Source: Eukaryota sp. GEM-RC1 (lineage: Eukaryota). Taken from it: a DNA stretch of 64,000 nt. Location: contig JAUFOQ010000005.1 in the NCBI GenBank assembly GCA_040285855.1, forward strand, positions 372,001 to 436,000. The letters run 5' to 3'. Of this stretch, positions 3,358 through 58,947 are shown one piece after another (positions within the stretch are counted from its first letter, which is position 1; every line of letters starts with the position of its first letter). Made by a program: the position numbers and the translations under genes. A model generated the notes under the pieces. It worked only from the letters and a program-made list of their open reading frames with translations, was not told the origin of the DNA and ran no database searches.

Positions 3358-3610
3358 TTACCTATTGTTAAAAATCAAAATTAGGTACTGACTTTTCCGG
3401 TTCACCATCTTCCTGCTGGAACACTCCGGTATCTTTCGCATCTTGACAATTGCTTTTACAACTAAAGTCTTCCATAGATTGTTGATTATCTTCAACAACA
3501 GCGCTACATTCAGCATTTTGGAGGACAGTGGAAACCGTTCTGAACAGATTGATGATGCGGAAGAGAATAGGTGTTCAACCTGAGAAGAAGTTGCAGGGAT
3601 ATATGACACC
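3358..3610 (-). pseudogene. hAT transposase C-terminal dimerisation-domain fragment
   Basis: YIPATSSQVEHLFSSASSICSERFPLSSKMLNVALLLK matches the hAT IPATS..ER.FS...R..L motif. Confidence 0.7.
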
Positions 3611-4306
3611 CGCAAAAACGCCTCCGTTAATAAAACTATTATGCAAAAACGTTCCCGTTGCTCGTGTCCTAACAAAACAGCGGCAGAGAACATTGTTTTT
3701 CCTTCTTATGCGTTTTATGATTCTTAACTCTCTCCCATTAATAATAATGGACTCGCCAAAGTTGCTCCAGGCTCTAAAGTTTTTGAATTCTACCGTGAAA
3801 CTTACAAAAAGAAATGTGATGAAAAGAGTCATTGTGAGATCATGTAACACGATTAGATAGAAGGTGTTTGCTTCGGTTTCAGGTAACAAATCACAAGTCT
3901 CTTTTTCCAACAACGATGAGTTGACCAGGAGATGCCGTGCACACGTTTTTCATCTCATTGTAAAACGACTCGTTATGTTCGTAAATTCACGACAAAGCTG
4001 AATCACAGTGGCAGATTAAGAAAGCAGCTGACTGAGATAGTTGTCGACATGAACCACAACTTGACTGTATCAATTTCAGGTGACGTAGCTACAAGATTCA
4101 ATTTCACTTATTTTTTGTTAAAAGGATATTTCAAACTTCTTCCTTTTATCAACTGTTTTTTCGAAACTCCCACAGGCAGTGAGCTTCTCGAGCTCAAATT
4201 AAATGATACTGAAGGGTGAAAGTTGAAGACTTTATCAGTCAATTTCACTAGATCGGAATTTCAACACAACTTCATTTTCTGTTTTTCACAATACTCCATT
4301 ACTAGT

Positions 4307-5314: not shown

Positions 5315-6379
5315 TCACCAGCAACTCTTCTTTTCCAAGTATGGAGATTTATAATATTCGTGGTCAACCCAGCCACTGTGATTCAATAAAGGGCGACAAT
5401 CAACTCTTAAATGAAGATCAAGGACACGATGAATAAAGTCGTTTTCGCTAAAATTGAGTCGAGAATAATCTCTATAAAGTTCACGCATTTTACATCTTAG
5501 AGAACGGAAGAAGTTCTCAATACAGTTCGATTCGGGGCAATAAGGAGGAAGAATAAAGTACTGGATGCCCATTTTACGAAGACCTTCAGAAATATTTTGA
5601 TGTCTATGGATGGAACATCCATCAAGAATGATTTTTGATCGTGATCCTCCTGACGTTCCAATTTTTCCTAATCGAATAAGGTCGATTAGGAACTCCACAA
5701 ATTGTTGACGGTCAAAGTGGCCATACTGAATATGGGAATGGACGTAGCCATTCATATCCATAGCCACAACGGCACTGATTTGTGAACGGGCCAATCTCTG
5801 AGTTTTTGTATTAGGTGACATCCCTTTGAGTGCTCGTCCACATGTTCTAATAAAATCTTCAGCATGAAAGGAGATCTCATCAATGAAAAGCAACTGGTAC
5901 TGTCGAATAGTACCTATTTCCCTACTCAGACGGTATTCAAATGATGCGATGAGGTCAATTTTCGCACGTTTGACCAACAATCTGCAACGTTTGTGGGTAT
6001 ACCCAGCAGTGACCAAAGCTCTGTGAATCGTTGATACCGACACATCCTTGTTTCTTTCATTTTTCATTAGAGTAACTATCTCTTTAAGATAGAGTAAAGG
6101 GTCTGTTTCAACTGTCGTTATTAAAAACTCAACATCACTGTCGTCAAGTTTTCGTCTTGGCTCGTGAGGTTCTTCAAAGAGATGAGCAGAAAAAACACGG
6201 TCAATCCATTTGGAAATTGTACTTTGACGAACACAGTACATCTTCGCGATCGTCTCCTGGGACACTTCTAAGTAGAAGTAGGTCCAAACAGCCCTACAAA
6301 TCGTATCTTCGGACGCATTTACACAAAGAGTTCGGAAATCCAAATCGGGACTAAGGAGCATGTTGTAAGTGAAGCCCAT
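5315..6379 (-). CDS. IS630/Tc1/mariner superfamily DD34E transposase (intact)
   Basis: N-terminal HTHs (SQETIAKMYCVRQSTISKWI; VSVSTIHRAL), LLFIDE, IILDGCSIH, then 34 residues to E in LPPYCPESNCIE. Confidence 0.93.
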   Translation of the reverse strand: MGFTYNMLLSPDLDFRTLCVNASEDTICRAVWTYFYLEVSQETIAKMYCVRQSTISKWIDRVFSAHLFEEPHEPRRKLDDSDVEFLITTVETDPLLYLKEIVTLMKNERNKDVSVSTIHRALVTAGYTHKRCRLLVKRAKIDLIASFEYRLSREIGTIRQYQLLFIDEISFHAEDFIRTCGRALKGMSPNTKTQRLARSQISAVVAMDMNGYVHSHIQYGHFDRQQFVEFLIDLIRLGKIGTSGGSRSKIILDGCSIHRHQNISEGLRKMGIQYFILPPYCPESNCIENFFRSLRCKMRELYRDYSRLNFSENDFIHRVLDLHLRVDCRPLLNHSGWVDHEYYKSPYLEKKSCW

Positions 6380-9300
6380 GAAGACATAAGCAGTGTGAAG
6401 ATGTCAAAAATGGGGAGAGAAGAAATGTTGTAAAAGAGAAAATGTTGGAAAATGGATTTAGAATGAGTATTCCGCCATTCTGAAATTGACTGATATGATT
6501 TTTTGTATGGCTTCTTCAAAGCAGTTTCTTTCCGGCGAGCAAAACGTTACCGTATCTCTGATGACTTCAATTTGGAACAAGACTGTGACGATTTCAATTC
6601 CAGGTGTCTGCATGGCTGCGATCTGCATGTAGTAGAGCTTCTTTGGTTGTTGCTAAATATGCTCCATTTGTTTACAACTGCACCACATTCGAATGCATGT
6701 TCCTTGATCCTAGGTAAATTTGGCAAAATATGTGCCCTCAACTCAAAAACGATAATCAGCTCAACAACTTTAAACAAATTTATGAAGTAAGAAATGTCCT
6801 GTTTTCGCAAGATGTCCAAGCACCGGATATCATTCAAGAGGCACTTCATGGTTCTGATGATGAGTATCTTGCATCACTTCAAGATCAAGTGGTTCATTAT
6901 GAGAGAAATGAGATGGAGCGATATCAAGAAGTAGTACCAATCGATATGACAGCTTGCCCTTTGAGCTGGTGGAAGATTCATAAGAGTGAGTTCGTGGTTC
7001 TTGCGTTCCTTGCAAGAGACTTTTGGCTATTCCAGCCACGTCTGTTCCCTGTGAACGAGTGTTTTAACTTCCAGGGAACATTAAAAATAACAAGAGAAGT
7101 AGACTCGGTGATGATTTGTTCACTTCTTGAACCCTGTTAAAGGACTGGTTGGAAAAGGGTTATGATATCTTAGAAGTCCGTATTGACGACGAAGACGAAG
7201 ACGTTGGTCAGACTTTTGGTGAAGTTGAGGTCTAGTACTACAGTCCAGGTGTATCATTTATACTTATTTATACTAATAAATTGATGTTAAACTATGATGA
7301 ACATTGGTTAATGATGCATTTCTATCAGCACTCACACCCAAGTCATTATACAAGTCAAGTCATTTTGCTCAAGTCGACTTGGTATGATTTGACTTAACTT
7401 GATGAATGACTCAAGTCAAAGTCAAGTCGACTTGAGTCATTGGACAACCCTAATTTTTAAATAGCAAAAAAAGTACTGGAAATTCCTTCCAACAATATTA
7501 GATCGTCAATCATGTAATAATGCTGTAATATTATTTGAAATATTCCTCTTAAGAATCAGACGCGACGAAATCAATCAGGAAAAAGTGATTGAATTGATGA
7601 TGTCATCAATCAGGAATCCAAAGTAAAGAAACAAACCTGAAACTCAAAGTAAAACCAGGTTATCCAAGAGAAATAGACATGTAGGTAGATGAATCGAGAA
7701 ATAGACTCAAGTATAGATGTTAAATCAAGAGTAAGTTAGAGAACAGACTCAACTAGAGTATGATAACGTCAAACACGTTTCCTAACACCGTGTTAACACG
7801 TGTCAAGGATTACTTCTGGTAACGTGTCACGTACACACCACTCAATTGACGAAGAAGAATTGGTCTGTAAATGAGATCATCGATCCTCTGTTGGGAACTA
7901 ATAGAGAAGTGAAGAAGAGAGTAGACGGGAGCAACAGCGTAGAGCAAAGGACATAAATATGAAGTTCGAGAGAGTTGAATCAAAGAGAGAAGTTCATGTC
8001 CTCTCCTCAATGTTGAACATGTAACCTTCTCCTGATCAACATGGGACGCTCTTAGTGACGCGCCACGATTCTTCTGCTCGATCCGATTCAACTGGAGGTA
8101 CAAATCTTTCTTTCCTTGAATATTTTTCTTCTCAAAGTCCTTTCGATGTTCGATCTTCACGTCTTTGCGACCAATCGAACTCCTACAGAGATTTATGAGC
8201 ATTGTTTGGTCTGAAACCAAACACTACCTAAGAACGTGATTACTAGTCTGAAGTCTCTCTCATTTCCTTTAACTAAAACTGGTGAATCTCCACCAAGCTC
8301 TGTCGCTTCTCCTTGTCCTTCACACTCCTTGGATTCCTTCTTTCTCCCTCTCAAAGTAATGTCTTGCCAGTTCTCTCGTCTCCTGACCTTTGTGACTGTC
8401 TACTTGTCAAACACTAGTATTCATCACTGATTTAGGCCATCAATTCAATCTCAAGAAAACTCTGATTTGAATGTCTAACATGAGTTACTATCTATTAAGG
8501 TACCCTATTTATTACTAATGACAGTGTTACTTACTTTCCAGCATTCACACTACCTAAATCTACAGTCTTTTGAATTGACTAATTGTTGTATTTTCTTGGT
8601 ATAATTTTCAATGAAAGTAATAGAACAGGTGTTTTTTTAATATGCTTTCCGAAAAAAGCTTTTATTAAGACCATGTTCATTGTTCTTTTTATTCTGAATG
8701 AGTCCAAAAGAACTTGATTAATGCAGATTATTGGATTCTAAATTTCCTTTTTTACTAAACTAATAACATTGTTGAGTGTTAGTTCTGAGTATACTTAAGT
8801 TAATACTACTGACTTAATAGTTACCTATCAACTTCTTCAATTATTCATGATCAATCTTAATGGACAGTTGTTTACTTATCTTCTTTCTACTTACTTGTTT
8901 TAATTACTGGTTTAAATGGTTCTACTCCAGTGGAGGAAGGAATTTTCACTACTCAGAATCTTTTTCACTGTCTTTTTCTTTTTATTTAGTTCATTTGACC
9001 TTTGAAAATAAATCAACTCAACAGGTCAATGAACTCAAAACAACTGTTAAAACTTTACTTTTACTCTTGTTACTTACTGATAGATATAGAACTCTCCAAG
9101 TATAACCATCATCTTCAGTTAGGGGTTTGACCACTCGAGTCATGAGGTTCTCCCCATTTTAAGAACACGGGCATGGTTGAGATGTACTAGCAGATTCATT
9201 TCCTTTATTCAGCTTTATTCTTTTTTTTCAGTCACTAATAAGAAGGTCTTGTATAAGAGATTTGATTAGGGGAATTTGACAGCTTGGCACACCTCTTGAA

Positions 9301-13153: not shown

Positions 13154-13679
13154 AATATCACAAATTTGAAAAGCGTTGTTCAATTTAAATGTGTTCAAAT
13201 ATCTTCCTTTTCAGGGAAGTAATGGATAGCGTTCAATTCTAGGTGATAATCACCCCAACCTCGACCATCGCGTAGTGAGCTCAACCGTTGAGCCCACTTA
13301 AAGAAGTTCAACGGCGAGTTGGATTGAAGTCATCTGCGTGAAACCCTTTTGCCTTTCCGGATGTAAAGCGCAAAAACACCAACGCAAAACCCCTCAGGTA
13401 CGTACGATTTACACACTTATGTCAGCAAGAGAACAGCAAGGATCTGTCTTAAAGAGAAGACCAGTACAACATATGATGAAGAAGTCATAATGTCAAGTTG
13501 TCAGTGTCAACATCAGCTATAAATAGTTGAAATCTCTTTGACCGGTATCTTTGTCATTCCCTTTTTCGACTTCCAAACACTGCAAAGTGTTTTGGGTAAT
13601 AGTAACAGGATTCAGTTACTCGCACTATCACACGTCGTTTCTCAACAGTCATTTTTATCAACAGTCATCTCAGTTTGCT

Positions 13680-13724
13680 CATGATTTAACCACGGACGGA
13701 GACATAGAGTTCAATCCAGGACCT
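13680..13724 (+). other. 2A-like (StopGo) ribosome-skipping motif
   Basis: HDLTTDGDIEFNPGP matches D(V/I)ExNPGP with the typical DLTxxGD upstream context. Confidence 0.75.
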
Positions 13725-13765
13725 CATCTTACAGATGAGCAACTGAGATCCGTTTTGCACCAAAC

Positions 13766-14365
13766 GTAGACAATATCGACACGTTAGAGCCCAACGTCTG
13801 GGTTAATGATGATGATGTCATCGACTTATACGGTGATTTTCTAACAAAAAGCAGCAGTTGTTGTAAGTACTTTCAAATCAATGACATGATTGGTGCTTTT
13901 GGTGTTTATTATTTTCAATTATTATTAAAAAAGTTCGATTACCTAATTACTTCAATGAATGATTGTGTTCCGAAGAAACGACTTATATTCATGCCAATCA
14001 ACGATGGCCTTTTCGGTAAAACTCCGACTCATTGGACACTTCTAATTTGCGACATTAAGATCAAACGACTTTTTTCAATCGATTCAACGTATACTGAAGA
14101 AGAACACTTCAAACAACTGGCGACTACAATTCGAACTTCTCGCAATGAAACAGTAGTCCAACGTTTACAGCAAGATTTGTTTAATGACGCAGATTACATG
14201 TATATGGATAAACTAGTTGTAAAGCAAGAGCAAACTAAACACGATTGTGGACCTTTTATTCTAATGTACATTCAAAAGTGTGTTGCCTTAACAGACTCAT
14301 CTATTGATTGTTCATCTATCGATTTTAAAGAAATTATAGCCAAACTCGTAACTATGATGCTCTAA
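13766..14365 (+). pseudogene. Ulp1/SENP (C48) cysteine protease domain 1
   Basis: IDTLEPNVWVNDDDVIDLYG, FMPIN...THWTLLICD...SIDS, QEQTKHDCGPFILMY (His-Asp-Gln-Cys). One frameshift from the 2A frame. Confidence 0.85.
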
Positions 14366-14367
14366 AA

Positions 14368-15534
14368 ATGCGGAAAGAAGCTTTGACTCATTTTATATCT
14401 ACTCAATCAGCAGAGAGGGCTGAACGTGCTAGAGAAGTATTAAGGCAACGGTTTCCTACAGAAACCCAACAAGTGCCATTGACTACTCCTAATCAACTTC
14501 TCAACTCAAATCGTACAAGAAAAAGAACATCTTCTCGTCAATCTAGAAAACAACCTCCAAAAAAGAAGAAATTTTCTCAAAAATCTCAAATTATACAACA
14601 TCAACATCGTGGAATTCTAACACAATCTCGTCCTAGACCTCTCATACTTAGATCACGTGATCAAATTGACTCACTGAAACCCAATGTGCTGCTTCATGAT
14701 TCTGTCATTGACTTTTTTGGTCAGTACATTGCTGAAAAGAGTAATCCATGCGAGTTCTTTGAAGTAGCCAACATTCAAGATGCAGTCAATCTTTCACAGT
14801 ATAACATAATGTTTGAACAATTTAGAGAGGTTCAATTATCAATGGGCAAATCCAGTAAAAGACACACTAAAAAGTGTAAGAAACGTTTCTTGTTTATTTC
14901 AATACATGACGGTCTCTTTGGTACAACAGCCACTCACTGGTCACTCTAAATCTGTGATATTGAAAATAAACAATACTTCTCTATTGACTCAATGTGTACA
15001 GCAGATCAACATTCTCAGTTTTCTAACACTTTATCACGTATTGACAATGTCATTTCACAATTACAACAATTCCTGTTTGATATGGCAAATTTCAGCTATA
15101 CAGCCAGAGTACCAGTTCAACAAGTCCAAACTCTTAATGACTGTGGTCTATTTATTCTAATGTATATGAATAAATTTGTCGAGTGTGAATCAACATCAAC
15201 AAGTCTTTTCGAAATTCTGTCTCAAGTCGCTAATTGTATTGTTTATAATGCATTAGAAATGAGAAAACAAATACTGTCTCAAATCGTTACTACTCACCCT
15301 GATGAATACCGACAATATGTATGTACTCATGCCCAAGGTATTTTAAATGAGTTTTATACTGATGAGATTGAATCACCTGTTAATCAACCTGTACAGTGTC
15401 AATCTGAAAGTTTAACTCCTGAAACAATGGCAGATGATAGTAATTACAAGGAAACGGTATCAAAGCTCACCTATCAAAACTTTCTGAAAAGTTTACCTGG
15501 AAATTTGTCTAATCGGAAAAGAGGCGTCTTTTGA
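14368..15534 (+). pseudogene. Ulp1/SENP (C48) protease domain 2 plus linkers
   Basis: IDSLKPNVLLHDSVIDFFG, THWSL*ICD..SIDS (in-frame TAA at 14947), QVQTLNDCGLFILMY. A clear tandem paralog of domain 1. Confidence 0.85.
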
Positions 15535-16487
15535 AGTTCAAAATGATTGAACAAGCGCTGAAAGGGGCTGGAGAATTGTTTCAAGAAAGTTATAATAACT
15601 TTAGTCGTCCAGAGTTGACAGATCTTCCAGAAATTAATTTATCAACTCCAAAAATAAATGTTGCTGCTTGTGAGAAACCTGATACAACAGAAACAACAGC
15701 AGCAACAGTTAATAGTAAGACAACAGTTGCCAAAAGGAAAACCACCAAACCAAAAGCAAGTGGAGTATCCAATGCGACAAAGAGTTTGAAACCTCCTAAG
15801 AAGCCAATGGTTGAGTTTCTCAAACATTCCCAATTACCAAAAAACTCTAATCATTGTTCCATATTGTCTTTTGATATTGAAACTAGAGAAATTGATCAAA
15901 TCCCTGCAGAGACAGTTCCAGAGGAGTTGGATGATCAAAGAAAGAACGAGAATGAATCTCTCAAAATGAAAAGTGATGCAGAAAGAGAAGTGTGGATTGA
16001 AAATCAACAAGTATTTATGATTTCTGGAGTGTTTGGTCATTTTATAAAAGATCAATTTTACTTTCAAGACAATTTTGTTGCAACTTATGAGTTGACTCAT
16101 GAATCTGATGTTGAACTGCCACCTGATTGTAGAACCCTTCGATTTTTTGAAGACGAAAAACAGTTACTAGAGTTTTTTGTCAACTATTTGAATGATAAAA
16201 CACCTTCTATGTTAACTGGATTTAACATCACTGACTTCGATAATGTTGTTTTAGACAAAAGGATTGATACACTTGGAGTAGACTTTCCAGAACCAATGCT
16301 AGATGACACAACTAAATCTCATATATCACCTTTATGGCAGAAAGTTTGTTCTGAATGGGCTGGTAGAATTGTCTGTGATTCATACGTTTATGCTAAGCAA
16401 TTTATTGTTTCAAAATGTTCAAAATCTTTAAGAGCATTAAGTTGGTTTTTATTAAACGAATCTAAAGGACGTCTTTCAAAAGACTGA
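15531..16487 (+). pseudogene. Family-B DNA polymerase 3'-5' exonuclease-like domain (DEDD)
   Basis: ExoI ILSFDIET (~15870), FEDEKQLLEFF, ExoII LTGFNITDFD (~16218), GRIVCDSY...SLRALSWFLLNESK. ExoIII and the polymerase domain are not seen. Confidence 0.85.
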
Positions 16488-16489
16488 TC

Positions 16490-17550
16490 AAGAAGAAAAA
16501 ATGTCAAAAAAAAGAACAGACGGTGTTTCGTTGGAGACTTAGACAAGTTAAAAATGTCTTTCTTGAAGGCAACAGAAATGACACTCCAAAAACCACTGCA
16601 GAAATAAAACAATTTATTCAAAGATGCAGAAATTCTTCAAGACGACAGTAATAGAAGTTTGAACATTGCAGGTAAAATTAAACTTCTGTGGGCAACTAAC
16701 GACTATGTTGAACAATTGTTTAAAGATAAATATTTTATTGATGTTCTCTTTCCACCATCATTTGATATTCAAAATGCTAATGGTGTTTATAAAAAGAAAG
16801 TCGTTAAATCTCTACTAAAAATCAGTTCGTGAACATCCTCAATCCTTTATTAAAACTGCTTTTCAAATAAATTACTATCTTGAAAGTGAAGGAGCAAGTG
16901 CTTACAATGTAATTGGGATTGTTCGTCACGTCACACCAGGTTTCTTTGAAATAGACACACAAGGTCTTTGGGGAATATTACGTTCCACTTTGTCAACACA
17001 ACAAGTGAATGTCAAGAAGAAAATGTCTGTTTGGAATACAAAGAATGAAATTGCACACATGACTCCTGCTGAACAAAATCAATTCTGGTCACATTTTTTC
17101 AACTTTAATCGTGCATTTATAAAGAAAGGTTATAAGTTTAACAATACCATTAAAACTGATGGTTTCTCTGCTTGTGTTGAACTGACTAGAGAGGACTGTG
17201 TTGGAATGTCATTTAAACCAGACAGTGCAAAGTTCTCCAGTAAAGAAGAATATGTTCAAGACTATGATGTTGACGAGTTTTCATTGAAAACAAAAGTGTT
17301 TATTGATCCTGGAAATTCAGATTTACTCTATTTTTGTTCAGAGAAAGTAAATAAAACCCGAGAAAGAAGAGACAAAGAATACGAGTGGCCAAGATTGACA
17401 GAGACAGAATGGTCCATATGGTCAAGGGTTCATCAAAAGTTTAGAAGGGGAAAGAAAAAAGAATTCATTCTCCAAGATGGAAAAACAGTTGAACAAGAAG
17501 AGTCAACATTGTCGAAAGAAAATTCGAAGTCCACTCTTTATGACATATTG
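16490..17550 (+). pseudogene. Fanzor1 (TnpB-like RuvC nuclease), partial
   Basis: VREHPQSFIKTAFQINYYLESEG...TPGFFEIDT, FWSHFF...YKFNNTIKTDGFSACV, EEYV, RuvC-I KVFIDPGNSDLLY (~17302), GKTVEQEESTLSKENSK. RuvC-II/III not seen. Confidence 0.8.
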
Positions 17551-17986: not shown

Positions 17987-19645
17987 AAAAAAGAAAAAAC
18001 AATAGTAAAAAAGATTCTGAGTAGTGAAAATTCCTTCCTCCACCGAGTAGAACCATTTAAACCAGTAATTAAAACAAAGAAGTGTTGAAAGAAGATGAGT
18101 AAACAACTCTCAATTAAGACTGATAATGAATAAATGAAGAAGTTGATAGGTAACTATTAAATCAGTAGCATTAACTTAAGTAGACTCAAAACTAATACTT
18201 AACAATGTTATTAGTTTAGTAAAAAGGAAATTTAGGATCCAATAATCTCCATTAATCAAGTTCTTTTGGACTCATTCAGAATAAAAAGAACAATGAACAT
18301 GGTCTTAATAAAAGCTTTTTTCGGAAAGTATATCAAAAAACACGTGTTCTATTACTTTCATTGAGAATTATACCAAGAAAGTACAACAATCAGTCAATTC
18401 AAAAGACTGTAGATTTAGGTAGTGTGAATGCTGGAAAGTAAGTAACACTGTCATTAGTGATAAATAAGGTACCTTAATAGATAGTAACTCATGTTAGACA
18501 TTCGAATCAGAGTTTTCTTGAGATTGAAGTGATGACCTAAATCAGTGGTGAGTACTAGTGTTTGACAAGTAGAGAGTCACAAAGGTCAGGAGACGAGAGA
18601 ACTGGCAAGACATTACTTTGAGAGGGAGAAAGAAGGAAGGAATTGAAGGAGTGTGAAGGACGAGGAGAAGCCACAGAGCTTGGAGGTGGAGATTCACCAG
18701 TTTTAGTTAAAGGAATTGAGAGAAACTTCAGACTGGTAAACACGTTCTTATGTAGTTGTTGGATTCAGATCAAACGATACTTTTGCATCTCTGTAGGAGT
18801 TTGATTGGTCACAGCGACGTGAAGATGGAACATCGAAAGGACTTTGAGAAGAAGTAGATCAAGAAAAGAAAGAGTTGTATCTCCAATTGAATCGGATTGA
18901 GCAGTAGAATCGTGGCGCGCCACTAAGAGCGTCCCATTTTGATCAGGAGAAGGTTACAGGTATGACATTGTGAGGAGAGGACATGAACTTGTCTCTTTGA
19001 TTCAACTCTCTCAAACTTCACATTTATGTTCTTTGCTCTACAATGTTGCTCTACTCGTCTACTCTCTTCTTCACTTCTCTATTAGTTCACAACGGAGGAT
19101 CAATTATCTCATTTACAGACCAATTCTTCTTCGTCAATTGAGTGTTGTGTACGTGACACGTTACCAGAAGTAATCCTTGACACGTGTTAACACGGTGTTA
19201 GGAAACATGTTTGTTGTTATCATACTCTAGTTGAGTCTGTTCTCTAACTTTTTCTTGATTAAACATCTATACTTGAGACTATTTCTCGATTCAACTACCT
19301 ACATGTCTATTTCTCTTGGATAACCTGATCATTCTTTGAGTTTCATGTTTGTTACTTTACTTTGGATTCCTGGTTGATCACGTCATCAATTCAATCACTT
19401 CATACTGATTGGTTTCTTTCAAGTTCAATGATCTCTTGGTCTCACACTTTTTTAAATTGTTAGGACCTCTAACTTAGGTATCATTTATTGTATTTCCATG
19501 TATACTGCCATTTTGTTTTGGTCCACGAACAATTCTTAAGTTTACGTCTTCATTCTAGTTCAATTGCTTCCATTATTTGATTTGAAACTCAAGAAGATTG
19601 TTCATGATAGATATTCCACTACTTTGTTGGAAGTAATTTCCAGCA
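17987..19645 (-). repeat. Block A partial inverted copy
   Basis: Reverse complement of ~7476..8990 and 47880..49370 (e.g. CACGTGTTAACACGGTGTTAGGAAAC). Confidence 0.85.
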
Positions 19646-24194: not shown

Positions 24195-25480
24195 CTTTTA
24201 TTATGAAAAAGAACGGATTTATGTGCGGAGAAAAACGCACAACAAGAAAACAACATATAAATTCAGAAAATTAAAACAAATTATCAAACGAACTACCTAA
24301 TTCCGAAAAGTAGTTGCCTCCAAACAACTTGGACAAAATGGAATTAATATATCTATACATAGACCTGAACATCGAAAAAGTAAATTTGCTCTTCCAGTAC
24401 GGTCTGTTAAACTACTTGCCAAATTCTGAACACAAATTTTCAAATAAATTTAAAAACTCCTTGGTCGAAGAACCGAAATTACCGTACAAAGTAACTACAA
24501 AAGGCTGAAAGACGATATTCTTGTGTCTTCGTGGATTCAATGCAGCAACTTGATGTACGTACTTAGACACTTTAGCGTTCTCAGCGTCTTTCAGCGGATC
24601 ATTTGAAGTATTCAAAATATTGGCAATAACTGAAGCTTTGCAAGGATCAACGGTCGTAAAATCAACAACAATTTCTTGGCATGACAACCAATGGCCAATA
24701 AAATCACCACGTTTCTGAGTAGAATCAGGGTGATCTGAAAGATGAGAAAGTAACGGTTCAACTTTGCCATGGAAACCATTCGCCTTAAACATTTCCAAAC
24801 ATGTATCTCGAAGACTGTTGTGCAACATAGAACGGCAATATATGTATTTTGAACAATTGACCAAATGATGAAAGCTTTTTGTTTGTTTTTACAGATACAC
24901 ATGCTGTTCTGTAACACACCAAATGGCCAAAAACATAAACGAAGTCTCATATTAACAAACCATTCATGATCTTTTGGATTAAAAAGAAATCCCCCTGACA
25001 ATAGAGTAATGAAAGTAGATGCTGAGTCACTACTCATGTCTTGTAAAAATGCACAGAAAGCAGAACTTTTACCTTTAGGCAAGCTAATGCAGTTAGTATA
25101 GTCCAAGCTCTCATAGAAAGATACAAATTTGTTCTGCAATTTTTTAACACCAAGAGGAAGGGAAAAAAGCGTACGTTGAGGTGTTTCAGTCACAGATGCA
25201 GGAAACAAGGATTCCCAAACATCAGGGTTCATACCATCTACAAGATTTTGAAGTGCTATAAGTCAGTGACAAGGCCAATATCGAATGAAATCTTCATTAG
25301 ACCAAAGTAAAGGATAACGTAACTCAAATTCATAGCAGATTCTTCAAGCATCCTACAAAGGCGTTTTCACGTATATAACGAGCTCCGGAAAACCCAATTC
25401 CACCAAATCTAACAGCAGCAAATGAATGACGATGAATGGAAAGCTTTTTCGACTCTACCAGCTCTGACAAAAACTCTGTT
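24195..25480 (-). mobile_element. 5'-truncated RLE-type (CRE-like) non-LTR retrotransposon
   Basis: RT thumb AVRFGGIGF, MRLRLCFW, CCHC finger (CICKN...HLVNC), MLHNSLRD, PD-(D/E)xK endonuclease KRGD...VVDFTTVDP...AENAKVSKY...FQPFVVTLYGNFG. Frameshifted. Confidence 0.85.
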
Positions 25481-25761: not shown

Positions 25762-26049
25762 GGTTTCTCCCAGTTGCGTTCCGTGATGTAATTGGCTGGT
25801 TTGTGATCCATACCGTCCAATTGTACAAAGCGCTTGTGAACCAGGATGGCGTTCAAATGATTACTGCTTCCGGAACACCTCCAGTGCCTAAGGCTGCTTA
25901 CTCTTGTGATGGATCAGATCTCGTTGTGGATGTCATTTCAGTAATGAAGAACGTGTTAAGCTTGCTAACACAACCTTTAACAAATGTAGGAATGTCGGAT
26001 GATCTAGCTGATGCCATAACTTACTCTAATTTCTTTTCCACTTGTATTT

Positions 26050-27430
26050 CCGTTTCTTCTTTCGATGAATAATCGGATCTGGACATGTGATTCCATGATT
26101 GTGAGTGTTTTCACCAAATGTTCTCCCTTAGCACACTTAGAGCAACACTTACTGGTTCGGTACTCATCCACAAGAGAAATCTTGAACCCTGCTTTTCTAA
26201 ATAGCTTCCTCATTGATTTTCCTTTAATTGTTGGAAGAAAACCTTTAGAGCCAAAAGCAGAGTCATCCCAATCGCCAAGAACTTTGTTTGGTTCACAAAG
26301 ATTTTCTCGAAACGGATGATCATTTGGTCTTCTCCCCGTTTCTTGTTGGAGTACAACTGAAGTTGTCTCTTTCTAAACCAAGTTGAGCTGTATAAATTGC
26401 AAGTTCTCAAGTTGAATAATTCTTTTTGATAGATGTACTCACAAAACTCTTCACGAACACAAGATTGTTTTTGTCCTTGATTGACAGCAGCAGAGAAGAG
26501 ATTAGTTGTATCTTTACCAGTTACATCGAGCCAGGTTGTCAATTCAAGCTTTCGTTGTTCTGTTTTACGGTATTTCTTGAATTTGGATTCGTAGTTACGT
26601 TCCCCATGAGTATAAACAAACTTTTTAAACTTGTCTGTTTGTTCTCATTTTAACATCTTCAGATACTTGAACTTCTGGTTTGGGTGTTCTTTTGTTTCTT
26701 CTGTTTTAATGATACGATTGGGTGGCTTTCGTGGTCTTGTGGTTGCATCTGTTTTAATTCCTTCTTTTCTAATTCCTCAGTAGATTTTTCTGTGCCAGCA
26801 ACAATTGGGGCATACTTATTTGGATCAATACCCACCAGAGTTCTATCTTTTAGATTTAATTCCTCAAGATCAGTGACTGTTAAATCATCCAGTTACTTTT
26901 CTTCAGTTTGCAATTGAATTGTAGAGTATTGTTTTCCTACTAAATCGTTTCTTTGTAAAACAAGTGAAACCGAAACACCATCAGTTTGAAATTCACTTTG
27001 AATTGAGTTTGTAAAGGAGTAAATTTGTCTTAGTACATTTGAAGCATCCAGCATCTCTGTTAAGTAGGGAATCCCAAATTTCTGTTCCATTTTGAATAGA
27101 ATGGGTTCAATAAAATTTCTTTGTTTGTTATGTTACAATTTTCTCCCCAGAAATTTTGGATTCTAAATCTTGCACTTCAGCCATGGCTTTGTTTGAAAAA
27201 ATTACCAAATACAACTTTAGTGTCAACTCTAAAATGCTGTGGAATGACAGTCTCTGTTAAAGGAAGACAATTTGGAATACTGCAAGGATTTCCTCTTTCA
27301 TCAGTTTCAGCTCTTCCAAGCCTTGTTGTAAAAATTGCAGGAGACAACAACTTCACTGGATGTACCTTTTGAGAATAGAATAAGTTTTTATCTTTGACAA
27401 ATAGTGAAGTAAAATGATCTTTCAGATATA
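26050..27430 (-). pseudogene. Fanzor1 (TnpB-like RuvC nuclease), frameshifted
   Basis: CLPLTETVIPQHFRVDT, EFQTDGVSVSLVLQRNDLVGK, RuvC-I LVGIDPN (26821), FRKRQLQLYSNKKRGEDQM, VLGDW...PTIKGKSMRKLFRKAGFKISLVDEYRTSKCCSKC. RuvC-III not seen. Confidence 0.88.
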
Positions 27431-27449
27431 TTTTAAAATTCCAAAAGTC

Positions 27450-28140
27450 TACTAAGTGATGACATAATTCCACATCATTAATACAATATCAAGCAAGAGA
27501 CGTTCGGTCTTCATCTGAACCATTCCACAAACGACAAATTTCCTTCAACTTGGCTAAAGTACTTTGATTTCTCAACATTTCACAACCTTGACTCTTGTAC
27601 TTAGTTTGAAGACGAACTTTCTCATCTTTAGATAAAATATACAATTTTTGAACTTGTGAACCTTCAAACAGATATGAAACAACATTTTCCGATGATATAC
27701 CTCCGGGAAATGTAAAAGTAGAACGTAAAAGATGATACAAATTCAGAGACAAAATAGAAGCAAGGTTTGACTTTTCAGCCCATCTTTGAAAAAACATGGA
27801 CAACAAACAGAACCTTCACCCAGTTTAATTAAGAAATTGATGTTCACATCAAGCAGTTGACGAATAATAAACGGTAAATCAAATGAATTACAATTGTAAC
27901 CACAAATGGGTTTTGGCTTTTCCAATTTCAGTAGATCAATAAATTTCACCAACATTTCCTTTTCATTTTCAAAAGCACATCTTCAACATTCAGAATATCA
28001 GTAAGAACTGATTTACAAGTATACAAGAAATTTCTTGACTCTTGTAAATGATGTTCAACAATATTTACAAGTTGAACTGCAATCTGGAAAATTGAATCAT
28101 TTTCAAAGTCGGGTTTCAAATTATCTGGTTTTTCAGAAAG
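27450..28140 (-). pseudogene. Family-B DNA polymerase 3'-5' exonuclease-like domain
   Basis: PDFENDSIFQIAV, FENEKEMLVKFIDLL, ExoII ICGYNCNSFDLPFII (~27880), ExoIII LA*YCINDVEL (27474-27488). Confidence 0.85.
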
Positions 28141-28629
28141 ATTGGTTTGTCTTCTGGTTCGAGGTCATCATCTTGAGAAACATTGAGGCAATTGACGGCT
28201 GGGACTCTTTCAGGATCAAAAGGAGCTCCACTTCTTTGTAATAACACATCCAGCAAGAGAAAACAATGGTTCAGAAGGTGTACTTGTGGTTTGAATAGAG
28301 AATATCTGTGTTTATATTATAGTCAAATTATAATTGTAACATCCTGAAACGATTTTGCATTTAGGACTATTTATGTGTTTAGAGAAATCAGTGGTGTTAT
28401 ACAGAGGTCAGACACAATATTCCATATGGATACACTATTTCACTAGAACAAAATTCGTCGACAAAATTTCCGCGAAAACTCAAAAATAATCCGTCGACTC
28501 GACGACGACGACGACGACGACGGAGAAATGAAATACGAACGTCGACGATTCGTTGATGATTGTTGGTAGCGAATTCGTCATGTCTAGAAAATTGTTTGTT
28601 CAAATATTTCTCATAAGATGAAAAGCAAT

Positions 28630-29976
28630 GCTCTCTTCTTCTGTTCTTTATCCCCTCTTCACTCACGCTCTTACTGAAGACACGAAACAACCAAAAAGGA
28701 CTTGCATTTTCAGCAAAGCTTGTTGATTTTGACTCATCTTCACTTCTTGAAACGTCTCTTAAAGTCTTCTTCTGAAGTGGATTATGACGATCCTGGTCGT
28801 CATTTCCTTAATTTGAAGAAACAATTGCACACATTCTTTAAGAAACTTGGCTATGTATCTCGTCGCTTCTTTGAAACTGCTCGTCTAACTGTCAAGGTGT
28901 ATATCCAGACATACACGTTTCATTTAGTTCCTGACGTTCTTCCTCAACTACATGTATTTGCTTCCTTCTTTGGAGCAGAGGTACAGTCTGTTTTCTTACA
29001 CGTGACCCAGAACTTTAGAGTTCAAGAACTTCTCCATTACTCTAATATAATATCAGGTTTGTTTTTGACATTAGAAAACTCTACTGACTTGGAGTTCCTC
29101 AATAACTCTTCTTCGTTCTTTCCACGTCTTAAACAGCTTCATGTGCGTGTTGATTCTTCTATTTCTTTGTTGTTAATTGAATTGTTAAAAGTCAATACTA
29201 CGGTCACAAGTATTGACCTGGAAGAAACTTTGCTTGGTCCAGCAGGTGCTAGAGCTTTAGCGGATATGTTGAAAATTAATGATACAATGGAAAGTGTAAA
29301 TGTAAGCTACAACTCTATTGGAGATGAAGGTGCAACAGCATTATCAGAAGCGTTGAAAATTAATACTACATTATCAATAATCAATTTGAATTTCAATTCC
29401 ATTGGAGATGAAGGTGCTACTGAATTGGCAGAGGCATTAACAGTTAATACTACGGTGAAAAAAATTGATTTGAGTGGGAATTATTTTGGGGTTGAGGGTG
29501 CTAGAGCTTTAGCGGATATGTTGAAAATTAATGCTACAGTTGAGAGTGTAAATTTGAGTTACAACTCCCTTGAAGATGATGGTGCTGGAGCATTGGTAGA
29601 TGCATTAACTGTTAACACTACAGTTACACGTGTTATTCTGTGGGATATATCTATTACAGACGAAAGTGCAACCGCATTTGCAATTTTGTTAAAACTTAAT
29701 ATTTCAGTAACAAGTATTGATTTGAGTGGAAACTCTATTGGAACTGAAGGAGCTATATCGTTAGCAGAAGCGTTACATGTAAATAATACTGTTGTGAGTG
29801 TGAATTTAAGTGACAACTTTATTGATGACGCAGGTGCTATCGCTTTGGCAAATGCTTTGAAAGTTAATACTACAGTGACTATTGATTTGACTGGAAATCC
29901 TATTACAGATGAATGTGCTATATCACTGGCAGATGTGTTAAACGTAAATGGCACAGTTAAAATATCAACAAGTTGA
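28630..29976 (+). CDS. NLRC3/RI-like LRR protein (5' end frameshifted or disrupted)
   Basis: Family N-domain HFQQSLLILTHLHFLKRL...FFPRLKQLHV plus ~9 28-aa repeats LKVNTTxxxIxLxxNSIGxEGAxALA. Confidence 0.8.
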
Positions 29977-31273
29977 TCTTAATTCGATTTTTATGCTTAA
30001 TATACCCTAAGTTTACGTTCATTTTATCGTGATGAAAACTACTTAATTAGATGTTTCTATAACTCGATTAAGTGATTTTAGGTGATTCGATGTTATCAAT
30101 TGTTACACAGTCTTTTCAGGTTTTTTGATTCCTACCATTTCAAGTAAATGCGTAAAAATATTACAGTTGTTGTTCAGCCACAACAAAGCTGACAATACGT
30201 AGAGTCCAGCTGATCATCCTCATAGATGTATTTATTTACTAATACATCGAAGTTGTTGGAAAAACTAATCTGGATACAGACATAACATTTGAAAACACGT
30301 TTATTGAACAAACTTAGATTCATATTATTGCATTATTGATCACACTTACAAACCCTTTTGTTTAGAGAAATACAAAAACAGGAATCAGCTACATACAACC
30401 AGATAGGGCCAAGGTCTGGTTTAAAGCACTCCCTTAATGTAGAGTGTCTACAAAGGAGGCGCTGCAAAGGAGAAGTGATTGCAAGCAGTGGAGGAAGATG
30501 TCCTGGAACTGTGAGAAGCATGTAGGTGTCAGTTTGAAAGAAGCGTTGAACAGCTGAAAAGCCACAGTCATAGAGGCGTTGACTCACAAAGCCCGCAGTC
30601 ACACGGAATAAGGACAAACTGTGTACCAAGAAAGAAAAGAGTAGGAGGAGGGGATTCAGTGAAGTCTGCGTAAAAGGCGGTTACCATCTAGACGAATTCT
30701 TCCGGCGACGCGATGAAGTATAGATTGATCGAAATCAAGACCGAGGGATAAGCGTTGAGGTGTCATAGCGTCAGGATAGCAGAAGGGAAGAACATTCAGA
30801 GAGAGGAAACATCACTCCGGAATCCGGTATATCACCATGAGAAAGACGACTCTTTTTAAGTGGAGGATCAGTGAAAGTGATGTGGATTCAATCAAGGAAA
30901 CAACATCTGTTTTGAGAGATTCAACCGATCACAGATGCATGACTACAGATTAATCAAGAACTAATAGGTGGTACCACAACATCAGATAGAGATTGTGCAA
31001 GTTCTTTGCTGTTCCTCTTGAATTGACTTGAAAAGACTACCACTAGTAATAGGTCAACACAATCCCATTGTCACACTGATCGTGGAAGATTACTGAACGC
31101 AAAAAGAATATTGTTTCGAGGCTTTTTAAACAACAGAATATGGACATAGGAGACACAGAAGAAGACGGATCATGATAATCTTACCACACCATTGGTTACT
31201 CACTCAAGTTTCTTCAATTCAATTAAGAAGATTGGACCTCAGAAGGAATCAAAGAAATCTAGAATCACCCTCA

Positions 31274-33073
31274 ATGGCCTCTTATCCCTTTATTAAGACA
31301 TTTAGGACAACTCACGTTCCGATCTCTTCTGTCCGCTGCCTTGAATGCTGCGATCAATGGATATCTAGTACATCTCCTTGTAAGCTGTCCTCCTCTTCTT
31401 ATCTCACATCCCCTCCCTTTGTATCGTTCCTGCCGTCGATTACTCGTCAAAGCAACATCACTCGCAAGTCAATTTTCTTCCAACAGTCCATAGTTGTGTC
31501 GATCCTCCTGCATTCCCTCAAACGTCTCTGTAAATCTCCTGGAGAAGTCAATTCCCGTGATCCTCGTGGTCCTCTGCGTTGTTTGAAGGAAAAACTACAC
31601 TCATTTGTTCAGAATGTTGGTTACGTTGGCCAACGTTTCTTTGAATCATCTTTTACTGCAATTCAGTTGTTTGTTGGTGCAAACTCGTTCTCTGTTGCTT
31701 CGGAAGACCTTGTCCAACTCTCCTCAATCACTTCCCTCTTTGGAGCAGAGATTAGCTCTGTTTTCTTAAACGTTGCGGAATTGTTTAAGGTCGAAGATTG
31801 CCGACAGCATTGTAACAAAATTTCAAGATTAAATGTTACCTTGAATGTAGCAAATGATTTAAGATTCCTCAACAAATCGTGTCCTCTGTACTTTCCTCAT
31901 CTTCAACGACTTAATGTACGTGTTGATTCATCTATTTTACAGACATTTGTGGGAACTTTGAAATTTAATTTTACAATTGTTCAAATTGACCTTCGGAATA
32001 ACTCTATTGGCGTTCACGGTGCCAGAGCATTAGCTGAAGCCTTGAAATTTAATCGTTCAATTACTAAGATTAATCTGGGGAATAACTCTATTGGAGCTGA
32101 AGGAGCGGTTCTACTAGCGGATGCACTGGAAATGAACTCTACAATTACTAAGATTGATTTTTCTGGTAATTCTTCCAAAAATGAAGGTGCGATTGCTTTG
32201 GGATATGCTTTGAGAATTAACTCTACAATTACTAAGATTGATTTATCTCTAAACTCCATCGGAGACAAGGGATTAAGGGCTTTGGCTGGTGCTCTGAAAG
32301 TAAATTCTTCAATTAATCAAATTAATCTAGCCTATAACTGTAATGGTTATAAAGGTGTTAGAGCATTGGCTGATGCGTTGAAAGTGAATTCTTCAGTGTC
32401 ACAAATTAATCTAGCTTACAATTCTAATGGAGATAAAGCTGTAAGAGCATTGGCTGATGCTTTGAAGGAAAACTCTTCAATTACTCATCTTAACTTAGCC
32501 TATAACTCTGTTGGAACTAAAGGTGCTCTAGCTTTGGCTGATGCTTTAAAAGTCAATTCTTCAGTTTTAGAAATTAATCTGTCTGCTAATGCAATTGGTG
32601 ATGATGGTACTGTAGCCTTGGCTGACGCTTTAAGATTAAATTCTTCTCTTCTTAAGATTAATTTAGAAAATAATTCAATTAGTTGTGAAGGTACAATAGC
32701 ATTGGCCGAAATGTTGAAGGTTAAATCCACACTTAATGTAATTAATCTACGGAATAACTATATCAATACTGAAGGAATACTATCATTGGCTGCTGGTTTG
32801 AGATTGAATTCTTCTATTAATGTGATTAATCTAGAAAATATTTCTATTGATGCTGAAGGAGCTACAGCCTTGGGTGAAATGTTAAAGGTTAATTCTACTA
32901 TCAGTACAATTAATTTACGGGACAACTCTATTGGGAACGAAGCAGCTCTCTTATTGGCGGATGCTTTGAATCAAAACTCTACAATTGTCAAGATTTCTGT
33001 AGGCTTTATGTCTCTTGACTCTCAAACAAAACAACTCCTGAGGAAAATGTCAAATGATCGAATCTCGTGTTAA
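31274..33073 (+). CDS. NLRC3/RI-like LRR protein (intact, ~599 aa)
   Basis: Same N-domain plus ~13 RI-like 28-aa LRRs. ATG at 31274. Confidence 0.88.
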   Translation: MASYPFIKTFRTTHVPISSVRCLECCDQWISSTSPCKLSSSSYLTSPPFVSFLPSITRQSNITRKSIFFQQSIVVSILLHSLKRLCKSPGEVNSRDPRGPLRCLKEKLHSFVQNVGYVGQRFFESSFTAIQLFVGANSFSVASEDLVQLSSITSLFGAEISSVFLNVAELFKVEDCRQHCNKISRLNVTLNVANDLRFLNKSCPLYFPHLQRLNVRVDSSILQTFVGTLKFNFTIVQIDLRNNSIGVHGARALAEALKFNRSITKINLGNNSIGAEGAVLLADALEMNSTITKIDFSGNSSKNEGAIALGYALRINSTITKIDLSLNSIGDKGLRALAGALKVNSSINQINLAYNCNGYKGVRALADALKVNSSVSQINLAYNSNGDKAVRALADALKENSSITHLNLAYNSVGTKGALALADALKVNSSVLEINLSANAIGDDGTVALADALRLNSSLLKINLENNSISCEGTIALAEMLKVKSTLNVINLRNNYINTEGILSLAAGLRLNSSINVINLENISIDAEGATALGEMLKVNSTISTINLRDNSIGNEAALLLADALNQNSTIVKISVGFMSLDSQTKQLLRKMSNDRISC

Positions 33074-33314
33074 TTTTGTAATGTTAAGACATTGTCTAAA
33101 TTAGTTTTTATTGTTTCATTTTATTAGTTAATTATTCTTTTTACTGTGGTGGGTATTGTGTTCAACACTCACTGAATAAGTTTGAACAAGAAATGGAATC
33201 ACCGTAGTTTGTTTGTGTAATAAAATTGTGTTATGTAACAGTGTAACATTAAAACTGTTTATTTCAAAAAAAATATCGAGGAGAATTATTCTTACTGTAA
33301 ACAAATCTATCGAC

Positions 33315-34900
33315 ATGTTCACCAACCTCTCAATTGGTGTTTCCCACCCAAAACTCTACCCCAAAAATACCATGATTGACCTAATACATGAACATGGCGG
33401 TGTACATGGCGTACATGGCGACCATTTACATCTGCTAATCTGCTCTTCCTCTGAATTGTCCAGAGAAACTAAGTTATACCACCAAGCTCTTGCTCAAGAT
33501 GTTCCCATTGTGTCTGAAGATTGGTTTGAAGCTGCCTTCAGGAGAATTACCCTTGGTCAATCAATTTCCAACTCAACTATGTTCTTCTCAACGTCACTGT
33601 CTTTCCCCTGTACTAACTCTCACTTCACTCGCTGAAAAGACTCTTAATCGCGAGCAGCTTCACTTTGTACTCTCTGAATCTGATTTGGTGTATAAAACCT
33701 TGCAAGCCAATACTCAACTTCTTGTTTGCTCTGGAAACAGAAGCCACCAAAACACCTCCCCCTCCCTATACTCTCCACTGCCCATTCTCGTCAAATACCC
33801 ATTGTAACCACTGCATGGATCACAGAGTCCTTTGCTTCCAAGAAACTCATTGACTACTCACGTCATCTACTCACTCCCTTGTATCCCACTTACAATCATG
33901 AGGCCAAACGATCACGTCTCTCTCCTAATGTTGAACCTCTAGATCATCCTGGCTTTCTCTTCAACATTCTTCTAGGTTCTCACTTCAAGTTTCCCATACT
34001 TAAACCACGACTTCTTTTGGCTCTTCATTGGCTCTTAGGAACAGAAGAACAATCAAAAATGATTTGGGACCGAAACAAATCAATGTTTGGGGCTTTTGTT
34101 GATCGTTCTCCAACTGGAATTTACGAACGTAAAAACTTTTCCAAAAAATTCATCAGTAAGACTTGCTCAACAAAGAGGGCTTTGACAGACTTTAATCTTT
34201 CTGTATTAGAGTTGAAGCCTCTGCATCACTCTTATCACGGCTATAATTTGATTGAAGTGAAGGAACTTTCCTTTTTTAAACATGGTCTTGATGACTATAG
34301 AAGAGTTAGGGACAGAAGAGAGAAGTTTCTGTTCAGAAAGCAAGAAATTCGTGATGAAAGAGTCTCATTTATTCACCATTATTTACGGTCTACTTTGAAT
34401 TTCAATGACTTTTTGTTTACATCAAAGATCATTAATTCTAAATATTGCTCTGATTTTCTAGCGAATGGTAAAGGTAAATCTAATATGAAATCACAATTAA
34501 ACAAGTTTGTTTTTATATATAACCTAACCAATCACTGCTCAGACTCTGATAGAGAACTTGTTATTCAACGTCTTAAAGATACTGAAGAAGTGACGGAAGA
34601 GATGGTTTCACAAGAAGTTCGCACAGTTATTTGGAATCGAAAATATGGTAATAGAGCTGACTTTTTCTTCACAATTCAAACACAAAAAAGTGGGTATGTT
34701 GAGGGATTTATATCTGACCTTGATATGGAAAACTTCATGAAAAAGTTTAAAGAAGAAAGAAAAACTAACTGAAGATCTTATTGAAAGTCTCACTGTAAAT
34801 TGCTCAAAAACTGTAAAGTCGATGGTTCTTAATCGACTTCAAAAAATTGAAATAGTTACAGAAGAATTAATTGCAGAGGAGATTCGTCGAGCTGGAACTT
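33315..34900 (+). pseudogene. BRCT/XPA-C-like family copy 2 (frameshifted)
   Basis: High identity to 244..2060, with frameshifts near 33538, 33733-33765 and 34765. Confidence 0.8.
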
Positions 34901-45028: not shown

Positions 45029-45499
45029 GTCGAAAGATTTGTTTACAGTAAAAAATTTCTATATGCCAAAAGAGATTGACTTAAAGAAGAAATACTAACT
45101 ATGTCGTTATTCAGATATTATTACTTAGACCTAGTAGTTTATACATAGATGCAAATACCTTGTCGTGTGATGTATGAGTGCATGTACAATTGATTACAAC
45201 GAAAATGAAATATAACTATGATCAGCAACAAGACTTGGACAAAATTTAAATACAGCTAATACAATCTGTTAACCAAGGCATGTAATTACATATAGTGTGT
45301 TTTTTTCACTAAAGCAGTCACTACAAGAGTGTATCTCCAAGAAAAAATAGAATAACGTTCAACATTGTACTGCAGTTATCTAATTTCTTGTAGACTGTTT
45401 ATGGTTGTAGATGTTTCTGAGTAACTGTGTGGAGTTTCGTTTGTCACAGTTTTTATTATATCATGTACAGTATTTTTGTACCCTCCATCAATAAAATGT

Positions 45500-58130: not shown

Positions 58131-58147
58131 TTAAACCCGAAAATTAT

Positions 58148-58947
58148 GAGAACGGCTATCTGTGTGACAAATGAAATTTGTATTTCTTACCCGTGTGACA
58201 AACTTAAACATCAACTTTTATCCGTGTGACAAGTCATAGTGTTTTGTCTATTAAATAGAACATCTTGTCGTGCAAATATCAGGAAGCAATTGTTCCCATC
58301 ATTGAAGGAATGCTTTGAAGCATGACACTTGGGGTTGTTCTCAGATTTGGGACTTTTTGGTTCGAAATGTATGATTCATCAAGTAGTGTAGACTTACTGT
58401 GTGTCAGATGTACCGTTGTCAGATGGGATGTAGATGTCTTCTCTGAGCACTAAGAGAGGTTTCAAAACGCCAACAAAAAGTTGAATCCGGTTGGTGTACA
58501 GCTTCTAATGTTTCGGAAGATCTTCATCCCGATAATGATAGTTCATATTAACTAAGACGTATCAGTGTCAACGTTTGGTCTACGATTCAAACTAAACAGA
58601 ATCAATGATTTTGGCTACAAGTCAGAGTATAACTACTATAAACGAAGCATCACAACACTTGCAAAGACACATGGAAAACCGTCAGAATTTATGGTCATAA
58701 TAAGAAAATGAAGTTGTGTAGAAGCTAGAAGTTTGAAGAGACTTAAGAAGACAGTGAGTCCGTTACACCTTAGATACAGATGTGTGATGTGAAGGTTTTA
58801 CTAGAAGGTAAACTGAGAAGATGACAGCAAGATAACTTCCGTCTAGGTCTAGGTGTCTGGAGTCTTGGTAAAATCCAAAATCCAATTCAAATTCTGTCAC
58901 ACGGATAAGAATTCCAAATTTCATTTGTCACACGGGTAGATCTACCC
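58148..58947. mobile_element. MULE-like non-autonomous element (800 bp)
   Basis: ~50-bp TIRs containing repeated CCGTGTGACA and a 9-bp TSD GAAAATTAT / AAAAATTAT. Confidence 0.75.

Follow-up and report, generated by a model that had tools for sequence, protein, structure and literature searches.

A 64,000-nt stretch of DNA from Eukaryota sp. GEM-RC1 (contig JAUFOQ010000005.1, positions 372,001 to 436,000 of the forward strand; hereafter the window) holds a 2A (StopGo) motif, two Ulp1/C48 proteases, a Lys/Arg-rich linker, a 3'-5' exonuclease of the family B DNA polymerase (PolB) type and a Fanzor1 nuclease, all on the forward strand. This array is probably one copy, now decayed and mosaic, of a mobile Fanzor1 element that anaerobic protists carry in multiple copies; intact gene models of the element consist of one open reading frame (ORF) with a variable front, a basic linker and an exonuclease-Fanzor part. 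This grading applies to the reading as a whole, including the functions proposed below. The family is a Fanzor1 variant with a natural exonuclease fusion and with 2A and Ulp1 modules. A sequence-only reading of the same DNA had called it a virus-style polyprotein, which holds as to the 2A motif and is unsupported as to processing by the proteases.

Reading frame and state of the window copy

Sister copies were found by homologue searches, cluster look-ups and HMMER; all are predicted gene models (designated P plus a number), not sister DNA, and come from Eukaryota sp. GEM-RC1 (25), TZLM3-RCL (33) and TZLM1-RC (14), several of them possibly sharing one locus. These names match Skoliomonas isolates, the assemblies of which are described as nanopore-based in passages of PMC11316075. 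The window is 85-93% identical to the GEM-RC1 models over most segments. P0007, which has the order 2A-Ulp1-Ulp1-exonuclease, covers window positions 13659-16388, P0001 and P0004 link the protease to the exonuclease, and P0026 links the exonuclease to Fanzor. The 1,571-residue P0033 combines a 2A-like motif, one Ulp1 domain, the exonuclease and a complete Fanzor1, with no alignment gap against any of the independent models tested (4/4). Because sister gene models, from three isolates, cross each junction of the window without a gap, the region from the 2A to Fanzor is, as judged from these proteins, a single original reading frame, in agreement with the sequence-only reading. The latter had also taken the echo of YDALKMRK after the first protease by YNALEMRK after the second as evidence of one frame; this echo is a C-terminal helix common to two domains that are 39% identical, and so bears on their homology and not on the frame. 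At this identity, a recent tandem duplication of the two proteases was rejected.

That the array consists of chance neighbours or fused gene models, the breaks being natural gene borders, is a very remote prospect. The continuity does come from predicted models, of which P0192 may carry a fused helicase, and from assemblies that passages of PMC11316075 describe as nanopore-based, but independent models are collinear and gap-free at each junction in three isolates and the breaks fall inside domains, so that this explanation is largely refuted.

The window copy itself is dead as assembled. Break J1 (13755-13759), between the 2A and the first protease, is a 1-nt shortfall in a T run at which P0007 is continuous, and it may be a read error. 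Break J2 (14351-14352) is a 10-nt shortfall after the first protease, deduced from sister proteins, and break J3 (about 15517) is a 1-nt break in an A run of the linker, common to P0006. The Fanzor part has three more breaks: two of +1 in A runs (about 16507 and about 16816) and, between them, a 5-nt shortfall (about 16625). The deletion junction (16475-16476) marks the loss of about 200 codons (residues 61-260 of P0026), with ExoIII and the start of the Fanzor WED/REC region, so that P0026 residues 1-60 are followed by residue 261. Fanzor homology then stops at about 17544, with the loss of RuvC-II, the zinc finger and RuvC-III. Read error and true mutation were told apart from sister proteins only: the four homopolymer 1-nt indels (about 13755, 15517, 16507 and 16816), two of which recur in P0006 and P0023, may be nanopore errors or slippage, and an in-frame TAA in the second protease, the 10-nt and 5-nt shortfalls, the deletion of about 200 codons and the 3' loss are not homopolymer events. 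The ORFs had been proposed to join by single frameshifts or one stop; the stop and the 1-nt breaks are there, and the 10-nt shortfall at J2 departs from that description.

The mosaic nature of the copy emerges from a switch at 14440-14460, before which it is 74-89% identical to subfamily alpha and after which it is 80-98% identical to subfamily beta. The alpha-like part contains the 2A, the first protease and the following helix, and the beta-like part everything from 14461. With the protease types given as letters, the layout of subfamily alpha (P0007) is 2A-A-C-exonuclease and that of subfamily beta (P0012, P0006 and P0004) 2A-D-B-exonuclease. By these identities, the window copy is a mosaic of the two subfamilies, and either a recombinant or a third subfamily fits. 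A likeness across the subfamilies was also seen between the Fanzors of P0003 (alpha) and P0026 (beta), which differ in REC and are nearly identical from RuvC-I onward, suggesting, at the level of sequence, a gene conversion of the 3' end.

The GEM-RC1 models that reach the region before RuvC-II (P0003, P0013, P0021, P0022, P0026 and P0029; 6/6) leave the Fanzor frame there at the same place, which may reflect a systematic assembly error, a shared lesion or a programmed frameshift.

The 2A motif and the Ulp1/C48 proteases

The 2A motif, DLTTDG-DIEFNPGP (DLTTDGDIEFNPGP, 13683-13724), belongs to the DLTxDG upstream class and is the one occurrence of NPGP when the window is read in all six frames. 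D[VI]ExNPGP has an analytic chance of 2.5e-5 per window and turned up in 0/60 shuffles. Among 210 fetched proteins, a 2A-like motif is present in nine, all of them in the exonuclease-Fanzor family and together covering all three isolates. The core D(V/I)ExNPGP is exact in the window and in 5/9 sisters, three others have H at p14, and one (P0033) has two changes. The position of the motif varies: it precedes Ulp1 in P0007, P0012, P0033 and P0040, stands directly before the exonuclease, without Ulp1, in P0107, P0197 and P0198, and lies right behind the C-terminal half of Ulp1 in P0206 and P0209 (TZLM1-RC subfamily). Three residues upstream, TZLM3-RCL copies have W, and the window and GEM-RC1 copies F. 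The DLTxDG hexapeptide is motif 4 among the upstream classes of PMC12846837, where a tested representative skipped almost 100% and the variant with H at p14 proved active. Hence, the motif likely makes the ribosome skip, as far as its sequence can tell. The sequence-only reading had named a loss of the motif in sister copies, or intact copies with the domains in separate genes, as grounds against it; neither occurred, since the 2A is kept and the modules share one frame.

The 2A could instead be a relic, or a dosage or targeting switch with a signal-like leader, and not a separator of domains. A short, partly hydrophobic stretch lies ahead of the 2A in most models, the motif of P0033 is degenerate, and the arrangement resembles that of non-LTR ORF2, in which a 2A lies 40-80 residues from the N-terminus (PMC3708506; see also PMC4981915). 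Against this, the NxGP core and the DLTxDG context persist between subfamilies whose identity is only about 30%, and in P0209 the motif stands behind a folded domain; we regard a relic or switch as unlikely and retain ribosome skipping as the preferred role.

Upstream of the motif, the 5' end of the element is somewhere within about 13340-13600, after a degenerate C-terminal exon of a host kinase. The TATA box TATAAATA reported at 13518 is present (13518-13525) and carries no weight, as it is indistinguishable from chance: the window has eight where 4.2 +/- 2.1 would be expected, and 8/100 shuffles reach eight. There is no in-frame ATG between this TATAAATA and the 2A. The leader at 13240-13540 was rejected as an omega-RNA, its folding being unexceptional (z -1.35 and -1.10) and its sequence partly the degenerate kinase exon. 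Shortly before the 2A there are three YAG sites (13648, 13664 and 13673), and a splice-acceptor-2A gene trap that would use them is speculation; sister homology continues through these sites.

The motif had been described as preceding two complete C48 proteases. Two such domains are present, the second of them cut by the TAA at 14947-14949, which comes after the catalytic HWSL. The first protease (type A, 13757-14350) is 85-89% identical to its counterparts in subfamily alpha (P0007, P0002 and P0011) and has intact catalytic motifs, and the second (type B, 14641-15290) is 86-98% identical to those of subfamily beta (P0001, P0004, P0006 and P0012). The window yields two PF02902 domains, with E 8.3e-8 and with E 4.3e-4, the latter being the C-terminal half of the second protease and just under the cut-off. 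Both retain the motifs of the His-Asp-Cys triad and of the oxyanion Gln. Across the family, there are 0-2 proteases per model, of at least six types that are 23-54% identical to one another. Judged from these sequences, the proteases are variable, swappable cargo and the exonuclease-Fanzor part is the constant core.

The proposal that the proteases process a polyprotein found no support. In this scheme, the Ulp1 domains would cut a precursor into protease, exonuclease and Fanzor, like the CE-clan proteases of large DNA viruses. The CE clan does include viral polyprotein proteases, and the poxvirus core protease and C48 clusters of nucleocytoplasmic large DNA viruses are among the fold neighbours; moreover, an AGT lies between the proteases of the beta subfamily and a GG ahead of the exonuclease in the P0044 subfamily. 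However, neither a GG nor an adenain-like site was found in the linkers of any of the 10 Ulp1-bearing models (21 models examined), which leaves self-processing unsupported, and the P0044 subfamily models that bear the GG show no Ulp1. In addition, the proteases are dispensable (P0107 and P0198 have none), the exonuclease-Fanzor spacing is fixed, and one subfamily separates Ulp1 by a 2A and not by a cleavage site. We therefore consider polyprotein processing improbable. The corresponding linker of the window copy, at 15291-15860, contains J3.

The closest matches of the proteases are cellular (SENP5 and Ulp1 by sequence, SENP8 by features), which is compatible with an anti-SUMO role by inference from sequence, NEDD8 or ubiquitin being candidate tags as well. 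On balance, we favour the removal of host ubiquitin-like marks over the cleavage of a polyprotein.

The exonuclease-Fanzor core and its proposed action

The exonuclease (15861-16475; PF03104, E 3.1e-14) has ExoI (D 15873, E 15879) and ExoII, and lacks ExoIII through the deletion. The Fanzor1 relic (16474-17544) has REC pieces, a TDG motif (17155-17163) and the DPG of RuvC-I (17305-17313), and ends before RuvC-II. Both domains named by the sequence-only reading were thus detected, in a state reduced by the losses described above. In full-length sister models, ExoI DxE, ExoII N...D and ExoIII YxxxD are all intact, and the sisters also have the alternative RuvC-II Glu with a C4 zinc finger after it, both of which are deleted in the window copy. 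TDG and DPG are found in the sisters, with TNG and DLG instead in the P0206 subfamily; DPG (RuvC-I) and TDG (WED) are Fanzor1 features (PMC10711439).

The spacing from ExoIII to the first WED strand shows no indel in any of the 27 models that contain it (27/27), across subfamilies about 30% identical, and from this conservation the exonuclease and Fanzor are taken to act as one fixed unit. In the sister models, no polymerase palm domain comes after the exonuclease and Fanzor follows directly. A relic of a family B DNA polymerase, a Polinton or a giant virus was rejected on the lack of a palm, and on a viral scan that gave one distant Fanzor without an exonuclease. This locus and four from a metagenome scan are distant Fanzor1 (26-29%) in ORFs without exonuclease, Ulp1 or NPGP.

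An AlphaFold2 model of P0015 (pLDDT 90.4, pTM 0.82) had PpFz1, SpuFz1 and GtFz1 as its top Foldseek matches (E 1.7e-27 to 2.2e-17), followed by PolB exonucleases. In a FastTree phylogeny of 100 rows, where support is SH without bootstrap and the names behind rows P0048 and P0052 were left unchecked, the 16 family rows form a single branch (SH 99). The exonuclease is present in six of the best 150 HMMER hits, all from Skoliomonas-type isolates, and absent from the other 144.

At the RuvC-III position, every family model that reaches it has Asn and not the aspartate of the 'RD' in the Bao and Jurka motif, and the RuvC triad of the family is D-E-N. The motif could be placed in 124 of the best 150 HMMER hits, with 112 D versus 12 N. 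According to the relevant portion of PMC11423790, GtFz1 cuts with D-E-N and the D606N change raises the activity of SpuFz1; on these grounds, a nuclease-dead repressor was rejected as the meaning of the D-to-N change. By this analogy, RNA-guided cutting with the D-E-N triad is likely for intact members.

From these parts, the following sequence of events can be proposed. The ribosome would skip at NPG/P and the nuclease would start at the Pro, freeing a short leader in the window's subfamily or the upstream protease in the TZLM1-RC subfamily. The D-E-N Fanzor is predicted to cut vacant element sites, guided by a predicted omega-RNA from the 3' end of the element; such cutting has been proposed for OMEGA nucleases in a part of PMC13565253. 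The tethered exonuclease would chew the 3' ends at the cut, clean re-ligation would fail and repair would copy from another element, which would also explain the mosaic copies. The proteases would strip SUMO-type or NEDD8-type marks from host proteins near the target, and movement would depend on a transposase encoded elsewhere. That end-chewing by the exonuclease biases repair toward copying of the element is a tentative step, to which we give slightly less than even chances.

The exonuclease may have another substrate, trimming the 3' end of a read-through omega-RNA and not cut DNA. The exonuclease connects to the beginning of WED, a domain that contacts the scaffold end, and the omega-RNA of Fanzor1 extends into flanking sequence in the passages of PMC13565253 that describe it. 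By sequence and fold, however, the enzyme is of the PolB proofreading type, and 144 of the best 150 Fanzor hits do without it. PolB proofreading exonucleases are a DNA-preferring family. Guide maturation thus seems rather improbable, and cut DNA remains our preferred substrate.

The family models scanned contained no transposase, and the repeats listed at the window element included no terminal inverted repeat. Rfam gave 0 hits in the window, and element ends, an omega-RNA and a target-site duplication were likewise not observed. An element that is free of any transposase, with the exonuclease-Fanzor spreading by cut-and-recombine and a virus-derived 2A making the front of the ORF an exchangeable counter-defence cassette, is conceivable and, in our judgement, unlikely.

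A second relic on the reverse strand (26004-28241) combines a piece of PolB exonuclease (PF03104, E 5.4e-10) with Fanzor1 pieces downstream of it. It is heavily frameshifted, has RuvC-II and the zinc finger but no NPGP, and sits on a long, unsure branch separate from the focal one, which suggests a second exonuclease-plus-Fanzor lineage in the host. Were the transposase-free alternative true, this relic would be a sign that the fusion had been selected repeatedly in the host lineage.

Several points weigh against the reading of the window as a decayed copy of such an element with the functions proposed. A 3'-5' exonuclease shortens, and does not create, the 3' tails needed by homologous recombination, so that this polarity alone does not favour recombination; the substrate of the exonuclease and the mode of movement are the weakest steps of the mechanism. 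The continuity of the frame rests on predicted models, of which P0003 and P0040 skip sequence, and no full-length GEM-RC1 protein is found among the models, owing to the common frame shift before RuvC-II. The 2A is not universal, being absent from P0044 and P0192 despite their long N-termini, and in P0033 its core is altered at two positions. Finally, the structure model of the protease is of low confidence (pLDDT 48), too weak to type the substrate, and also matched the poxvirus core protease, and the AGT and GG described above are the sole candidate cleavage sites.

Precedents, neighbouring features and significance

The family shares with the Fanzor1 proteins SpuFz1, PpFz1 and GtFz1 the TDG/DPG motifs, the alternative RuvC-II Glu before the zinc finger, the fold and, with GtFz1, the D-E-N triad. 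It adds an N-terminal PolB exonuclease at fixed spacing, the 2A and the Ulp1 modules, and its models reach 1,571 residues, compared to about 600-800 in known Fanzor1 (PMC10711439). The MCi-2 Fanzor elements of Mucor circinelloides (PMC3627910) likewise have differing 5' regions, a common Fanzor-coding 3' part and no terminal inverted repeats, although no in-frame fusion is described for their variable part, and no NPGP, Ulp1 or exonuclease appears in the main text or in the searched supplements (12 of 14) of that study. In the relevant sections of PMC3708506, APE-type non-LTR retrotransposons (L1Tc, Ingi, CR1, L2 and Crack) also have a 2A near the N-terminus of the main ORF; the present family has neither APE nor reverse transcriptase, has the exonuclease-Fanzor part downstream and, in one subfamily, places the 2A behind a protease. 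DNA transposons that carry Ulp1 or OTU (Ginger1, Mutator and Helitron) have an accessory CE-clan protease thought to target host SUMO or ubiquitin, as far as portions of PMC2836005 describe them, whereas the proteases here are fused to Fanzor and not to a transposase, and are tandem, swappable and N-terminal. Engineered exonuclease-Cas12 fusions such as T5Exo-Cas12j (bioRxiv 10.1101/2025.09.16.676532) likewise tether an exonuclease to an RNA-guided RuvC nuclease; the fusion described here is natural, with a 3'-5' PolB-type enzyme rigidly joined to WED.

Literature searches on Fanzor with Ulp1, 2A or exonuclease fusion, and on 2A in DNA transposons, showed no such element among the papers listed, and term searches detected no natural exonuclease or protease fusion in the main texts of PMC3627910, PMC10432273, PMC10711439, PMC13565253 and PMC10691335. 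Fanzors often carry extra domains, which are listed in a supplement, according to part of PMC10530073. The main text of PMC13405545 contains no 'Fanzor', 'Ulp1' or 'metamonad'; its list of 4,218 peptides and the tables of PMC12338488 could hold such motifs. The 2A, the Ulp1 cargo and the variable 5' ends each have precedent, and the combined layout is absent from the literature searched. A 2A at the head of a Fanzor ORF, which had been called unusual, is indeed without precedent there and recurs across subfamilies.

In one sister model, P0192 (2,027 residues), a DEAH-type helicase lies N-terminal to the linker-exonuclease-Fanzor part, and may be cargo, or else a host gene that the gene model has fused to it. 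Elsewhere in the window, a repeat of about 1.4 kb without a long ORF occurs in three copies that are 87-91% identical (7567-8983, 17988-19419 and 47965-49367), the second of which starts about 440 bp past the Fanzor truncation. Further mobile pieces lie at 5318-6403 (-), 3361-3857, 6718-7137 and 24415-25262; they presumably include a Tc1/IS630-like ORF, hAT-like fragments and a retroelement-like C-terminal fragment, labels that we assigned by eye on the translations. A gene labelled BRCT-like by eye has three paralogues (235-1629, 33186-34872 and 43317-45264), two of which share two 1-nt insertions that the intact copy lacks, and leucine-rich-repeat genes with a common N-terminal domain form an expanded family at 28678-33070 and 55333-63999.

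Natural 2A recoding has been described in RNA viruses, in non-LTR retrotransposons and in a small number of cellular genes. A 2A conserved in a metamonad Fanzor element would extend it to an element with an RNA-guided nuclease and to a deep branch of the eukaryotes. The exonuclease-Fanzor fusion is a natural counterpart of engineered editors, and P0015, P0033, P0044 and P0206 are full-length D-E-N members. The family makes testable the fate of DNA ends after a Fanzor cut, and the question whether de-SUMOylases are carried by mobile elements against host silencing or repair.

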